Source: an uncultured Nitrospirota bacterium
Lineage (GTDB): Bacteria > Nitrospirota > Nitrospiria > JACRHA01
DNA: 60,066 nt
Direction of reading: 5' to 3'
Assembly (NCBI GenBank): GCA_964481895.1
Contig: CAYZUL010000006.1
Span: 1 to 60,066 of the forward strand
In this document: positions 35,433 through 44,315 of the stretch, one piece after another
Layout of the letters: each line of letters opens with the position of its first letter
How positions within the stretch are numbered: the first letter of the stretch is position 1
Translations under genes and position numbers: made by a program
Notes under the pieces: model-generated
Database searches by the model: none
Seen by the model: the letters and a program-made list of their open reading frames with translations, nothing else
Told to the model about the DNA's origin: nothing

Positions 35433-36636
35433 CTCAAATAGAAACAAGATTACGTGGCTTGAGACAACATTCTGGGTGTTCCTCTTTATTGCCCTATTTT
35501 CATTGCCCCTTTCAGAGGCCATAAAAAATATATTTCTTGTAGGCGCCTACATTCAAGGATTGATCCTTCTTATTCTAAGGAAAGGTGAAATAAAGATATC
35601 CCCTATCGGATGGGCCTTCCTCTTATTTCTTTTTGTGTCCATATTAAGTGCGATAAACTCTTTTTATCCCTATAAGGCCGTGCGCGGAGTGTGGGACATT
35701 CTAAACCCCACTCTATTATACATAATATTAATAAATACTATAGATTCCCATAAAAGGATCAATACCATCCTTTCAATTATTATCCTATCTATTGGGATCG
35801 GCGCGATCCTGGGGATCACAGAATATCTCTTATGGCCGGAGAACTTTACTAGATTAAAGATCCATTCCCTGGGAAGTACCGCCGGCTACCTTGTAATTGT
35901 GATTGGTTTAATGATTGGAATGCTTATTAATATGAGACTTGAAAAGCGGGAGAGGGTGGTCTTAATTATAATCACGTTGCTCTCCTTTATTGCCTTGATA
36001 TTAACGAACTATCGAACTCAATGGGGTACCCTGTTAATAATGTTTTTAGTTTTTTCTCTACTAAATAAGATTAAGGCTTCCCATAGAACTATCCTCTCCT
36101 TTATGCTCATATTTGTTATTTTTTTAATTACGATTGTGGTATTAGACCATAATGTGGTTTTCAGTCGAATAAGAAATATGGCAACGCCCTCAAAAGATCC
36201 TGCTATGGTTGCCCGCATGACCATCTGGAAGGGCTCATGGGCCATGTTTATGGATAATCCCATCTTAGGTGTTGGACCCAAGTGTTTCCAGACCGATTGG
36301 AATTTTGAACGGGATGAAAACAGAAAAAAGTACAATGTCTTACCTGAAGCCGGGCAGGCCCACAATATGTTCCTTAACGTAGCGGCAGAAACGGGGATAA
36401 TGGGCATAATAGCTTTGCTGGCCTGGTTAGGAACGTATGCCTATCATTTGTTCAAATCGAGAAAGGATATTAATAACGATCTGGCGCTTTCGCTCTGGTA
36501 TGGCGCCCTTGGAGGGTGGATTGCTATATTGATCGGAGGGATGACGGAATCCTTTATTGGAGCTGAGATATCCCTTCTTATAATGACCATCCTGGCCCTC
36601 TTCCATTCATCCCTGCAAGTTAAAGAGGGAGATTAA
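35413..36636 (+). CDS. waaL: O-antigen ligase family protein
   Basis: About 12 TM helices, R..IWK......PILGVG, AHNMFL..AAETG..G. Confidence 0.88.
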   Translation: MELVLSNSNRNKITWLETTFWVFLFIALFSLPLSEAIKNIFLVGAYIQGLILLILRKGEIKISPIGWAFLLFLFVSILSAINSFYPYKAVRGVWDILNPTLLYIILINTIDSHKRINTILSIIILSIGIGAILGITEYLLWPENFTRLKIHSLGSTAGYLVIVIGLMIGMLINMRLEKRERVVLIIITLLSFIALILTNYRTQWGTLLIMFLVFSLLNKIKASHRTILSFMLIFVIFLITIVVLDHNVVFSRIRNMATPSKDPAMVARMTIWKGSWAMFMDNPILGVGPKCFQTDWNFERDENRKKYNVLPEAGQAHNMFLNVAAETGIMGIIALLAWLGTYAYHLFKSRKDINNDLALSLWYGALGGWIAILIGGMTESFIGAEISLLIMTILALFHSSLQVKEGD

Positions 36637-40338: not shown

Positions 40339-41177
40339 TTTAATTTTTCCCTCAGTATCCCGAAGTAGTTTCTGTCAGGAGATCCGACAAGCCTTATCTT
40401 CTGTTCTGACGCCTTTATCTCGACTACATCCTCCTCCCTCAGGGAGAATCCTACCTGACCGTCGAACGTAGCCACGGCGCCTTCATCCTTTGATTTTAAT
40501 ATTACCTCAACCCCGACATTGCCTGGGACAACAATCGGCCTGTTTGTTAAGGTATGAGGGCATACAGGCGTTATAATCATAGCATCAAGGGATGGGTGTA
40601 CGATTGGCCCGCCGGCAGAGAGGGAGTAGGCAGTTGAGCCGGTGGGGGTAGATACTATAAGGCCGTCAGCCCTCAGGCCGGTGACGAACTGATAATTTAT
40701 ATAGACCTCAAGGTTGATCATCCTGGCCAGCGAGCCCTTACTTATCACAACATCATTTAGTACGGTAGACTGCGCTATCCGCTCGCCCTGTCTGAGGATA
40801 TTGCTCTTCAACATCATCCTCTCGTCTATTATAAAGTCCTCCTGGAAGATCTTTTCTAGCGCAGCATATACCCCGTCCAGGGTTATCTCTGTGAGGAAGC
40901 CGAGCCCGCCAAGATTTACACCGAGTATCAGGGCATCCTTTCCCTCAACCAGCCTTGCCACACTGAGGAGTGTCCCATCTCCTCCAAGGACGATGATCAT
41001 CTCGACAAGGGATGGGATCCTGGACTTCTGAACTGCCGAAGGAAGCCCTGCAGTGGCTGCCGTGTCAGTATCCAGAAATACCTCCATCCCTCTCTCTGCC
41101 AACCAGGGAAGAAGACCGTCTAAAACCTTTTTGACCTCAGTTCTATGCGGTTTTGCTATGATGCCGATCCTCTGCAT
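40326..41177 (-). CDS. nadK: NAD kinase
   Basis: GGDGT, N.G.LGFL, LND, DG.IVSTPTGSTAYSLSAGGP. Confidence 0.96.
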   Translation of the reverse strand: MQRIGIIAKPHRTEVKKVLDGLLPWLAERGMEVFLDTDTAATAGLPSAVQKSRIPSLVEMIIVLGGDGTLLSVARLVEGKDALILGVNLGGLGFLTEITLDGVYAALEKIFQEDFIIDERMMLKSNILRQGERIAQSTVLNDVVISKGSLARMINLEVYINYQFVTGLRADGLIVSTPTGSTAYSLSAGGPIVHPSLDAMIITPVCPHTLTNRPIVVPGNVGVEVILKSKDEGAVATFDGQVGFSLREEDVVEIKASEQKIRLVGSPDRNYFGILREKLKWGR

Positions 41178-41297
41178 TTTAAGAATTTTTTGAACCATCA
41201 ACCAATTCTACCTGCTTTTTGGTTTACCGTCAATAAACGAACCTGTGTGCGAGCCTCATTTTTTTCTTGACATTTAAATTTATTGTATTATATATAC

Positions 41298-41445
41298 ATC
41301 AATTTATCTGTTGATTGGGACAGGAATTTCGGCCCAACATATTTTACCGGGCAAGGAGGAGGTGAGTCCTTTAGATACAGAAGCTGTATAAAGGGGATTT
41401 AAGGGCATATCGAGGTTATTAATCTTACGAAAGGGGGCAAATAGA
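41298..41445 (+). promoter_or_regulatory. structured 5' leader of speD with candidate uORF 41311-41391 (MIGTGISAQHILPGKEEVSPLDTEAV)
   Basis: TTGACA at 41267; hairpins 41298-41315, 41332-41352, 41367-41395; internal AAGGAGGAGG; uORF in frame with speD. Confidence 0.55.
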
Positions 41446-41880
41446 TTGTATGCTTTAGGGACGCATTTGTTGGTGGAGTTGAAAGATTGCACCAACTTAA
41501 AGCTTTTAAATGATGTAAAAAAGGTCGAAGAGGCCCTAGTCTCTGCGGCAAGAGAGGCAAAGGCAACAATCGTTCAGACCTGTTTTCACAAATTTAGTCC
41601 CTTTGGTATCAGTGGTGTGGTTGTAATTGCGGAGTCGCACCTGACGATCCACACCTGGCCCGAATATGGTTTTGCAGCCGTGGATATCTTTACCTGCGGT
41701 GATACGCTCCAGCCTGAGGTTGCAGCATCATACCTGATCGGTAAATTCAAGTCGCGGAACCCGTCTATTGTAGAGATGAAGAGGGGAATTATTTCAAACG
41801 GGGATGTCAAACTGCCCCATAAGCATGTTAGTGAGGTATACAACTATGGGGGAGCCCAAGAGTTACAAATGGCTCTTTGA
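41446..41880 (+). CDS. speD: S-adenosylmethionine decarboxylase proenzyme (short class 1B)
   Basis: G.HLL.EL, GISGVVVIAESHLTIHTWPE (E-S self-cleavage), D.FTCG; TTG start. Confidence 0.96.
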   Translation: MYALGTHLLVELKDCTNLKLLNDVKKVEEALVSAAREAKATIVQTCFHKFSPFGISGVVVIAESHLTIHTWPEYGFAAVDIFTCGDTLQPEVAASYLIGKFKSRNPSIVEMKRGIISNGDVKLPHKHVSEVYNYGGAQELQMAL

Positions 41881-42766
41881 TTACCTTAGCCCTGATGAAG
41901 GGCATATACATGGGATAAACACCATTATATATTCCAGGCAGACCAGGTTCCAGCAGATGGAGATAATGGACACCAAGAGTTACGGCCGCTGCCTGGTTCT
42001 TGACGGAAAGATGCAGTCCAGTGAGGCGGATGAGTTCATCTATCATGAGGCCCTTGTTCATCCGGCTATGCTCACACACCCGAATCCAAAAAGGATATTT
42101 ATAGTTGGCGGAGGGGAAGGGGCCACCCTCCGCGAGGTCTTGCGCTACAAATCTGTTGAATATGTGCTTATGGTTGATATAGACGAGGAGGTAGTGGAGA
42201 GCTGCAAGAAATACCTCCCGGAATGGCACCAGGGGTCGTTCGAGGATCCAAGGACAGAGCTTAAGTATCTGGATGCCAGGAAATATCTGGAAGAGACAGA
42301 GGATCAGTATGATATCATCATAATAGATATCTCTGAGCCGGTAGAAGAGGGTCCTGCCTATCTCCTCTATACAAAGGAGTTCTATTCAATGGTGCACAGG
42401 AGGCTCACAAGAGACGGGATAATCTCGCTCCAGGCAGGCACTACCTCTGCAACCAATCTCTTAAACTTTGCCTCGGTCCATCAAACCCTGAAGACCGCCT
42501 TCCCGGTAGTACGTCCGTATCAGGCCGCAATCCCATCGTTCGGCCTGCCATGGGGATTTACCCTCGCCTCAAAGGTCATAGATCCTCAGGGTATCTCCCC
42601 AGAGGAGATCGAGAAGAAGGCACTGGAGAGGGTCAGAGGCGAGTTGAGGTACTATAATGGGGCTATTCATAAGGGCCAGTTCCTCTTCCCAAAACATATC
42701 ACAAAGAGGCTTGAGAGCGAGGAGAGGGTCATCGAGGATAATTATCCCCTCTTTACTTATCACTAG
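41846..42766 (+). CDS. speE: polyamine aminopropyltransferase (spermidine synthase)
   Basis: LVLDG..QS...DEFIYHE, VGGGEGATLRE, VDID. Confidence 0.95.
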   Translation: MGEPKSYKWLFDYLSPDEGHIHGINTIIYSRQTRFQQMEIMDTKSYGRCLVLDGKMQSSEADEFIYHEALVHPAMLTHPNPKRIFIVGGGEGATLREVLRYKSVEYVLMVDIDEEVVESCKKYLPEWHQGSFEDPRTELKYLDARKYLEETEDQYDIIIIDISEPVEEGPAYLLYTKEFYSMVHRRLTRDGIISLQAGTTSATNLLNFASVHQTLKTAFPVVRPYQAAIPSFGLPWGFTLASKVIDPQGISPEEIEKKALERVRGELRYYNGAIHKGQFLFPKHITKRLESEERVIEDNYPLFTYH

Positions 42767-42839: not shown

Positions 42840-44315
42840 ATGGAGATAGACGAGCAGCTCAAGACACCCCTGTTTGATGCCATGGTTGGTCTGGCAGAAA
42901 GCAGGAAGGTCTCATTTCATACACCAGGGCACAAGAGCGGGAAGGGGATATCAACCAGATTCAGAAAGTTCGTAGGGCCCAAGATCTTTTCGATCGATCT
43001 AACCACCCTGGATGAGGTCGATTCCCTCCAGAAGCCGAAAGGGGTAATAAAGGAGGCCCAGGAGCTTGCAGCAAAGGCCTACGGTGCTGACCGCTCACAT
43101 TTCCTGGTCAACGGGACCAGCGGCGGTATCCATGCGATGGTGATGGCTACATGTAACCCTGGTGACTATGTGCTTGTGGCGAGGAATGCCCATAAGTCTG
43201 CCCTCGCCGGACTTATTTTGAGCGGTGCAAGGCCCCTCTTTTTTCACCCGGCGATAGACGAGAATCTCAAGCTCACATTAAATGTAACATTTGATTCTGT
43301 AAAATCTGCCATTGACAGTCACCCTGAGGCAAAGGCGCTCTTTCTGACAAGCCCCAACTATTACGGCATATGCCTTGATCTTGAGAGGATCATCCCGTAT
43401 GCCCATCAACAAGGACTGACAGTCCTTGTTGATGAAGCCCACGGACCACACCTGAAGTTCCATCCGGACCTTCCTGTCTCTGCCATGGAGGCGGGGGCAG
43501 ATCTGTGTGTTCAATCGACGCATAAGATCATTGGCGGTATGACGCAGGCCTCAATGCTCCACGCTAAGGGAGGCAGGGTAGACCCTTTAACCTTGACCAA
43601 TGCACTCAGGTTTGTCCAGACCACAAGTCCCTCATATATCCTTATGGCATCCCTGGACCTTGCAAGGATGCAGATGGCTACAGAGGGAGAAAAGCTCCTG
43701 GACAAGGCGATAAGGCTGGCTGAGGAGGCACGAGGCAAGATAAACAGGATACCCGGTCTTGTCTGCTTCGGTAAGGACATCATTACCAATCCCCTCTTTG
43801 CGCAGATGGGCGGGTTTGATGTGACCAAGCTTACCATCAGCGTTAAGGACCTCGGTGTCTCAGGGTACAGGGTGTCACAGATACTAAACAACAGATATAA
43901 TATCCAGGTGGAGATGGCTGATCCGTTCCACATCCTGGTGATAGTCAGTATAGGCGACAGGAGAGATGATCTAAACCGCCTTGTTGACGCCTTAAAAGAG
44001 ACGTCAAAGGAGTTTTACGGCAGAAATAATGAATATCCCATGGAAAAGGTAGGGCTTCCTCTATTTACCAACAGGGCCCACATTTCACCAAGAGAGGCAT
44101 TCTTTTCCGATCACGTAAGTATCCTCCTTAAGGATGCAAAGGAAGAGATAAGTTCAGAGATTGTGACCGTTTATCCGCCAGGCATACCGATCCTTGTGCC
44201 CGGGGAGGTGATCACAGATGAGGTTATAGGGTATCTCTCGATGATGCTTAAACTTGGGGCCATAGTAGATGGCCTTGACGAAGAGAACAAAGAGATCAGG
44301 ATAGTGAAAAAATAG
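42840..44315 (+). CDS. speA: fold-type I Arg/Lys/Orn decarboxylase
   Basis: FHTPGHK, LVNGTS, RNAHKS, DEAHG, QSTHK, TTSPSY, YPPGIP; substrate inferred from context. Confidence 0.85.
   Translation: MEIDEQLKTPLFDAMVGLAESRKVSFHTPGHKSGKGISTRFRKFVGPKIFSIDLTTLDEVDSLQKPKGVIKEAQELAAKAYGADRSHFLVNGTSGGIHAMVMATCNPGDYVLVARNAHKSALAGLILSGARPLFFHPAIDENLKLTLNVTFDSVKSAIDSHPEAKALFLTSPNYYGICLDLERIIPYAHQQGLTVLVDEAHGPHLKFHPDLPVSAMEAGADLCVQSTHKIIGGMTQASMLHAKGGRVDPLTLTNALRFVQTTSPSYILMASLDLARMQMATEGEKLLDKAIRLAEEARGKINRIPGLVCFGKDIITNPLFAQMGGFDVTKLTISVKDLGVSGYRVSQILNNRYNIQVEMADPFHILVIVSIGDRRDDLNRLVDALKETSKEFYGRNNEYPMEKVGLPLFTNRAHISPREAFFSDHVSILLKDAKEEISSEIVTVYPPGIPILVPGEVITDEVIGYLSMMLKLGAIVDGLDEENKEIRIVKK

Follow-up and report, generated by a model that had tools for sequence, protein, structure and literature searches.

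A conserved speD leader with an orphan Shine-Dalgarno sequence ahead of a non-AUG start codon in Nitrospirota

The leader of speD, the gene for the proenzyme of S-adenosylmethionine (SAM) decarboxylase, was analyzed in a window of 60,066 nucleotides (nt) from an uncultured Nitrospirota bacterium (assembly GCA_964481895.1, contig CAYZUL010000006.1, positions 1 to 60,066; all window features described here are on the forward strand), and it is a conserved, selected cis element of the speD operon in at least 13 Nitrospirota families. The most conserved upstream element of this leader is an orphan extended Shine-Dalgarno (SD) sequence, AAGGAGGAGGTGAG at 41353 to 41366 with the core GGAGGTGA at 41358 to 41365, which is located 88 nt upstream of the start codon. 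Next to the gene is a ribosome-binding site (RBS) block, ACGAAAGGGGGCAAATAGA at 41427 to 41445, which contains the true SD GAAAGGGGG (41429 to 41437) and an 8-nt spacer (41438 to 41445) directly before the TTG start of speD. The explanation we favor, and to which we give about an even chance, is that the leader is a docking site for the 30S ribosomal subunit coupled to a weak-start RBS, similar to a standby site or to a stabilizing SD (STAB-SD). SAM decarboxylase commits SAM to spermidine synthesis, and to our knowledge its control in bacteria outside the Bacillota is largely unknown. Judged on Rfam 15 and a limited literature search on speD leaders and riboswitches (supplements excluded), in which no description of this leader surfaced, the speD leader is undescribed before this analysis. 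An earlier reading of the window from its letters alone, referred to below as the sequence-only reading, had proposed a regulatory leader at this position, and this much of the proposal was borne out, as the orphan SD and the RBS block are kept across families whose flanking sequences do not align.

To measure conservation, speD was located in 33 of the 41 relatives searched, and positions and start codons were counted over 47 located class genomes from 15 families. The results showed that GGAGGT was present between -100 and -35 in 35 of the 47 genomes (15 families), or in 38 of the 47 when GGAGG or GAGGTG was also counted, and its position was -58 to -91 from the speD start in all leaders but one, the exception being at -41. 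In the window, the very strong SD-like run without a properly spaced start that had been pointed out at 41353 to 41362 (AAGGAGGAGG) is part of this element and is likewise kept across families. The RBS block was near-invariant over 51 distinct leaders, and GAAAGGGGGCAAAT has one exact copy in the 2.86-Mb genome; on comparison of these sequences, the orphan SD and the RBS block are far beyond chance. The leaders, which are otherwise unalignable, share an architecture of GGAGGTG(A), a stretch of 20 to 30 nt which is mostly A-rich, a hairpin named P2 whose sequence varies, (Y)ATNACGAAAGGGGGCAAATAGA, and a TTG or GTG start. Within the genus, the leader is conserved more than the 4-fold synonymous sites of speD, with an identity of 138/147 and 130/146 in comparison to 46/60 and 45/60 for the synonymous sites. 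The start codon of speD was TTG in 23, GTG in 24, and ATG in none of the 47 class genomes, and among public loci, 24 of the 25 with Nitrospirota titles start with a codon other than ATG, and 16 of the 42 from other phyla start with TTG. The non-AUG start is an old conserved trait of this speD clade. The TTG speD starts in other phyla include Dehalococcoidia- and Methylomirabilis-titled records (set L031 to L110).

A covariance model, R1, was built from 14 leaders, in which P2 and a small hairpin at the start were marked as structure, and exactly one match per genome was obtained in 42 of the 151 class genomes sampled. By family, using our own family labels, the model matched 2 of 2 genomes in f1, 6 of 8 in f2, 4 of 5 in f5, 5 of 7 in f10, 8 of 9 in f12, and 3 of 3 in f16, and none of the 54 genomes in f3, 25 in f15, and 7 in f6; speD itself was not found in the 6 f3 genomes searched. 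All the matches that were fetched, and all those coinciding with located speD loci, adjoin the speD start, and strong matches outside the 151-genome sample were obtained in a Troglogloeales metagenome-assembled genome (MAG) and a Nitrospirales MAG. A pattern scan of metagenomes was unspecific; as we read the fetched loci, a speD-type start comes after 26 of 80 (15 of 64 distinct cores), the remainder being chance matches. Short look-alikes were seen by eye in L066 and L076 (Methylomirabilis-type MAGs), L063 (Dehalococcoidia), and L109 (Pelotomaculum). In these look-alikes GGAGGTGAGA precedes a GAAAGGGGGTAGTTAA-TTG start by about 46 nt, and the stretch separating the two forms a hairpin. Also by eye, this hairpin carries a compensating A-U to G-C change between the two Methylomirabilis-type loci, whereas in Pelotomaculum it is TAAGGAGGT that precedes the RBS, by about 50 nt. 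Model R1 gave no score for the short Methylomirabilota and Dehalococcoidia versions, and their likeness is by eye only.

The 3' tail of 16S rRNA reads GGAUCACCUCCUUUCU in two complete genomes of the same class (the MAG's own 16S is unassembled), and the orphan AGGAGGUGA is thus perfectly complementary, over 9 nt, to the inner tail. AGGAGGTGA is the exact complement of UCACCUCCU in the same tail, and the true SD GAAAGGGGG can pair with the outermost CCUCCUUUC at the 16S 3' end, with one G-U. In 41 leaders, not a single ATG, GTG, or TTG was found 4 to 12 nt past the orphan GGAGG, in comparison to 10.0 ± 2.7 when each leader's own intervening sequence was shuffled with its composition kept (none of 1000 shuffles was as low); the count is inflated by kinship, though the sequences do differ between families. 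Depletion of start codons 3' of the orphan SD is expected if ribosomes dock there and initiation must be avoided, and it is indirect evidence that such sites are indeed seen by ribosomes. In 22 of 43 leaders, TGA directly follows GGAGG, and nt 4 to 28 past the orphan GGAGG are 42% A and 17% G. In addition, the distance of the orphan SD to the start is far more constant than its distance to the promoter.

In the explanation we favor, the orphan GGAGGUGA would bind the anti-SD of the 30S subunit, and the docked subunit could not initiate translation because no start codon is in range. The 30S subunit would be held about 60 to 90 nt ahead of the true RBS, which is composed of GAAAGGGGG, the 8-nt spacer, and a weak UUG/GUG start, and most likely it would feed or reload this true site, as a standby or loading site, while incidentally it may shield the message. 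What the sequences show is that the leader is conserved and complementary to 16S, avoids start codons, and has a covarying hairpin (P2), an invariant RBS block, and a non-AUG start; the binding of 30S, the direction of its effect, and any link to polyamine levels are what we infer. An upstream open reading frame (uORF) and two genus-specific hairpins, which are also present in the window, are incidental.

Several observations weigh against this explanation. Twelve of the 47 leaders have the RBS block yet no GGAGGT. One family carries the orphan SD in a tight GGAG-tetraloop-CUCC hairpin, and one of its members retains the hairpin without GGAGGT. The near-invariance of the 8-nt spacer is unexplained by 30S docking, the 5' end assumed for the leader is one deduced by comparing sequences, and the relatives are not independent, so that the counts overstate significance. 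The opening energies, calculated for 31 leaders with 25 flank shuffles each, showed that the orphan SD requires 4.5 kcal/mol in comparison to 4.7 kcal/mol with shuffled flanks (higher in 14 of 31 leaders) and the true SD requires 4.2 kcal/mol in comparison to 4.6 kcal/mol in shuffles (lower in 23 of 31 leaders). The orphan SD is thus no more exposed than with shuffled flanks. Since these energies are not above those of the shuffles, there is no sign of selection for sequestering either SD, which speaks against a thermometer or a classic riboswitch that masks the SD, as well as against the classic standby rationale: the true SD is not unusually sequestered, so that the usual reason for having a standby site does not apply.

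The same energies bear on the alternative that the leader is an RNA switch, possibly a riboswitch sensing spermidine, decarboxylated SAM (dcSAM), SAM, or methylthioadenosine (MTA), in which a change of pairing partners would expose or hide the true RBS and GGAGGUG would be part of the ligand pocket or an anti-anti-SD. We consider this unlikely, even though the gene context matches that of the known spermidine riboswitches as they are presented in PMC10853860, the 19-nt RBS block is conserved beyond the needs of an SD alone, TCCTTT in the window could pair with the AAAGGG of the RBS (correctly read earlier at 41430 to 41435), and in many relatives GGGGG could be paired by the YCC in the 3' arm of P2. 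The SD-sequestering switch proposed in the sequence-only reading is not supported, as shuffling the leaders leaves the true SD at least as occluded; neither is the orphan SD more sequestered than in its shuffles. The partners of GGAGGUG shift register between families, no terminator was found in the terminator/promoter scan of the leader region, and no match to SAM-I or any other Rfam family was obtained: searching positions 40900 to 41900 against Rfam 15 with cmscan at E up to 10 returned only two matches, both far below the threshold, to one microRNA model and one snoRNA model, and 19 related loci had no match in their leaders. The earlier statement that no named riboswitch could be recognized here thus agrees with Rfam.

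The structure of the leader provides little more for a switch, as one hairpin covaries and no multi-stem junction is seen. The hairpin in question is P2, for which both sides change in 5 of 6 pairs in the model-fitted alignment (54 rows, 51 distinct). The covariation score for two helices, P2 and the start hairpin, was 0.211 in comparison to 0.098 for shuffles (none of 500 reached it) and 0.02 to 0.05 when the partners were slid. P2 is countable only after realignment to a model built with P2, and an alignment fitted in this way leans towards P2. P2 is weak or absent in f2 and in the genus of the window, in which the model aligns no P2. When all 54 leaders were aligned by plain MAFFT, RNAalifold gave -1.54 kcal/mol with 5 pairs, which form the marginal start-codon hairpin only, and an exhaustive listing of column pairs of the leader alignment was uninformative. 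The start-codon hairpin (GCAA/UUGC) is itself unestablished: a compensatory change from A-U to C-G was seen in one lineage, but the pair is broken in 14 of 51 rows. A pairing of the conserved 5'-terminal AAAUUU with sequence past the orphan SD was also considered and rejected, being present in some minimum free energy (MFE) folds and inconsistent. The fold of the whole leader, about 146 nt, is unremarkable: its energy is -37.4 kcal/mol (z = -1.35), a value equaled or bettered by 20 of 200 shuffles.

Two other hairpins had been drawn on either side of the orphan SD in the sequence-only reading. The short one (41332 to 41352), with GCCC at 41332 to 41335 and GGGC at 41349 to 41352, lies just 5' of the orphan SD; it is missing from other families and identical in two congeners (L002 and L003), and because it is unchanged in both it shows no covariation. 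The long one (41363 to 41400, from MFE folds, with the inner stem TACAG/CTGTA) replaces the A-rich linker and P2 of other families, and the pairing TCCTTTA..TACAG/CTGTA..TAAAGGG described earlier, which spans 41367 to 41395, is the same hairpin. Its inner stem is kept in L002 and L003 with one G-C changed to G-U, and two outer pairs are lost. Both hairpins are therefore present as drawn, but as conserved elements they do not hold, since they are genus-specific and outer pairs of the long one are lost. A different, GC-rich speD leader was observed in other Nitrospirota MAGs (L048:1340-1512, L049:1340-1512, L050:328-500, and L052:1340-1512), with four hairpins and 35 consensus pairs, 7 of which are compensatory among the four sequences. 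Rfam gave no match for this GC-rich leader at E up to 1, and in appearance it is closer to a riboswitch than the speD leader of the window.

An orphan SD at which 30S binds without initiating could also act in a strict STAB-SD manner, in which the bound 30S only blocks 5'-to-3' decay by RNase J and stabilizes the mRNA as in cry3A. An SD-like 5' untranslated region (UTR) sequence which is complementary to the 16S 3' end and does not initiate is what defines a STAB-SD in the account given in PMC4113751, and the genome studied encodes RNase J, at 615 bits in comparison to a 400-bit cut-off, as well as RNase E/G. RNase J is patchy in the class (41 relatives): it was above the cut-off in f1, f4, f5, f9, f11, and f12, and none was found in f2, f6, f8, and f10. 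RNase J was thus not found above the cut-off in any genome of f2 (0/6), f8 (0/2), and f10 (0/5), though some genomes are only 70 to 90% complete and other RNases could substitute, whereas all the located leaders of these families have the orphan SD (6/6, 2/2, and 5/5, respectively; the genome sets differ). Conversely, f9 and f11 have RNase J, and most of their leaders are without the orphan SD. The combination in f2, f8, and f10 makes it unlikely that a strict cry3A-type mechanism is the whole story. The element, moreover, holds its distance to the RBS rather than to the 5' end. We consider decay protection by itself to be an improbable account of this leader.

Similar orphans elsewhere in the same genome speak for the docking explanation we favor and also for the STAB-SD alternative. 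An initial genome-wide survey for GGAGGT with crude open reading frame (ORF) masking returned 228 sites and was too noisy. When 169 GGAGGTGA sites were scored using home-made ORF calls, 43 were RBS-like, 100 were in long open frames, and 26 were neither. Ten of these 26, speD included, are located 73 to 149 nt ahead of a gene with its own RBS, and 6 of the 10 carry AAAGGAGGTGA. Such orphan sites, named by contig, include C1:95200(+), C1:69040(-), C1:6692(-), C10:48208(-), C53:8794(-), C7:36584(-), and C68:4315(+), and the seven genes behind them are groES, glnA, and five with signal-peptide-like N-termini as judged by eye, with AAAGGAGGTGA at all but glnA. The groES orphan lies directly after the inverted repeat CIRCE and reads GGAGGTGATGTAA, a possible start-stop; the first 27 nt or so of groES, including the start codon, are tandemly duplicated just upstream (C7, about 36436 to 36500, minus strand). 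The groES orphan SD was present in 2 of 30 loci, both of this genus, and was not found beyond it. The speD case is therefore more than a genome-wide habit, and, as the speD orphan SD spans the class, the speD element is under a stronger constraint of its own.

Recognition by a trans-acting factor, such as CsrA, another RNA-binding protein, or a small RNA, at the GGA motif of the orphan and/or at the RBS block was also weighed. The genome encodes CsrA (76 bits, above the cut-off), the orphan motif has AGGA, the 5' arm of P2 often has GGA, and the invariant spacer CAAATAGA suggests sequence recognition beyond the SD. On the other hand, CsrA leaders have GGA in hairpin loops with one overlapping the SD, and in the speD leaders the true SD GGGGG is without GGA, the GGA motifs are in stems rather than loops, and some P2 stems are without GGA; no candidate small RNA was identified. 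A trans-acting factor is accordingly given a very low probability.

Control by a translated leader peptide was suggested by the 26-codon uORF, which runs from TTG 41311 to TAA 41389-41391, encodes MIGTGISAQHILPGKEEVSPLDTEAV, and is judged a chance ORF. Eukaryotic SAM decarboxylase (AdoMetDC) is controlled by a uORF through a conserved translated peptide (MAGDIS), and the likeness is that the same enzyme is controlled via its 5' leader. The coordinates and the frame in the sequence-only reading were right: the uORF is in frame with speD TTG 41446, and the 18 codons from 41392 to 41445 are without a stop. In several families some in-frame ORF ends 21 nt before the start. The role as a leader peptide is what fails. 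The uORF has no SD and starts about 10 nt from the probable 5' end of the transcript, and in both congeners (L002 and L003) it ends after 20 codons by a change of TTA to TAA, with one synonymous and two non-synonymous changes making up the other differences within the genus. The differences between L027 and L028 over their ORF are mostly non-synonymous. In other families, no ORF of common frame or peptide was found; the ORFs over the orphan SD vary in frame, start, and peptide, and many of them begin inside the promoter. The recurring 'KEV' is AAG-GAG-GTG read in one frame. When the leader was shuffled 5000 times with its dinucleotides kept, 17.5% of the shuffles had a closed ORF of at least 26 codons in any frame, and 6.5% had one in the frame of speD. 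The leader peptide was thus rejected, and control resembling the eukaryotic uORF, for which a conserved peptide is needed, is hardly credible for a speD leader that has no conserved uORF. An N-terminal extension of SpeD was rejected as well, because in several relatives the frame is closed by a stop codon 21 nt ahead of the start.

The remaining features of the locus are as follows. All that the sequence-only reading had described in the letters was found at the coordinates it gave. The leader of about 145 nt between TTGACA and the TTG of a speD-speE-decarboxylase operon had been placed correctly, and the genes were identified by Pfam: speD (41446 to 41880, 144 aa, AdoMet_dc, 1.2e-39), speE (ATG 41846 to 42766, Spermine_synth, that is, spermidine synthase, 1.5e-50), and an Orn/Lys/Arg decarboxylase gene (42840 to 44315, OKR_DC_1, 1.7e-90), with a divergent NAD kinase gene upstream of speD (Pfam). 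The speD stop is at 41878 to 41880, and since the probable speE start lies 35 nt inside the speD end, the overlap suggests translational coupling of both genes. A T-tract with a putative -35 hexamer, TTTTTTCTTGACA at 41260 to 41272 (TTGACA at 41267 to 41272), is followed after 16 nt by a probable -10 hexamer, TATATA at 41289 to 41294, which aligns with TATATT-TACA of the relatives, and a reading of the upstream regions found TTTTTTCTTGACA-N16/17-TATATT-TACA in most families of the class. The speD transcription start is thereby placed, provisionally, near 41300. The promoter scan of 40900 to 41900 called minus-strand sites only and no promoter on the forward strand; TATATA was missed because the scan rule requires T at position 6. 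An AAATTT-like motif was observed about 6 to 12 nt past the probable start, in the window (41260 to 41310) and in the equivalent region of L004 to L028. This conserved promoter region may act as a strong promoter of the UP-like kind, as an operator, or as an element of the 5' end. A variable spacer (41401 to 41426) precedes the RBS block, and differences within the genus are densest there, most clearly in L003.

The weak start also raises the question of polyamines. If the two anti-SD complements acted as a polyamine-tuned rheostat, SAM decarboxylase would be under feedback without an aptamer or a peptide: the upstream complement is perfect to the inner 16S tail, the true SD matches the outermost part with a G-U wobble, and spermidine would shift the share of 30S subunits that sit unproductively at the upstream site relative to those at the true site with its weak start. 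This is quite unlikely in our estimation. If true, bacteria would have a counterpart of the leader control known from eukaryotic AdoMetDC, and polyamines would be sensed by a third route with a new mechanism. Whichever explanation is correct, the leader is a natural and deeply conserved test case for the role of an orphan SD in ribosome loading, as a decoy, or in message protection, and the universal UUG/GUG start of speD, seen partly in other phyla too, makes the link to polyamine-dependent initiation directly testable.

Four further known systems can be compared with the speD leader. In E. coli, polyamines enhance UUG/GUG-dependent initiation (PMC7177335), in agreement with the effect at poor start codons cited in the sequence-only reading; the UUG/GUG class of the polyamine modulon described there comprises cya, cra, spoT, frr, gshA, and uvrY, and it is stimulated at the binding of formylmethionyl-tRNA. 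The speD genes share the inefficient UUG/GUG start, which was seen in all 47 class genomes and in 24 of the 25 loci with Nitrospirota titles. The differences are that stimulation would amount to positive feedback on a gene of polyamine synthesis, and that in the portion of PMC7177335 drawn on here no upstream orphan SD is described for the E. coli genes of this class. Polyamine sensing by the speD leader is a possible function rather than a finding. The spermidine riboswitch, a variant of SAM-I (Salvail et al. 2023; PMC10853860), is similar in its position upstream of polyamine genes (speD, speE, speB, and ldcC), showing that RNA-level feedback on this pathway exists in bacteria. As described in that source it has a four-way SAM-I fold, acts by transcription termination, and belongs to the Bacillota, whereas the speD leader, which is unrelated to it, has no SAM match (E up to 10), no terminator, and one covarying hairpin.

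Ribosome standby or loading sites have reportedly been found in the MS2 coat and tisB messages. For the lpp 5' UTR, recruitment of 30S to an upstream site is described in PMC5924895. The likeness is that 30S would be recruited upstream and then move to the true site, and that in most relatives an A-rich, G-poor stretch lies 3' of the putative docking site. A classic standby site is single-stranded, rescues an RBS locked in stable structure, and needs no SD, whereas the putative docking site of speD is a full anti-SD complement and its RBS, at 4.2 kcal/mol in comparison to 4.6 kcal/mol in shuffles, is not so locked. The STAB-SD of cry3A from Bacillus thuringiensis (Agaisse and Lereclus 1996; Mathy et al. 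2007), as reviewed in PMC4113751, is likewise an SD-like, 16S-complementary 5' UTR sequence, roughly a hundred nt upstream and unused for initiation, and the speD element, so far as its sequence indicates, is also complementary to 16S and directs no initiation. In comparison to cry3A, the speD element goes with a single biosynthetic gene in at least 13 families, keeps its distance to the RBS, occurs also where RNase J was not found, and is accompanied by a hairpin that covaries, an RBS block that is invariant, and a start codon other than AUG.

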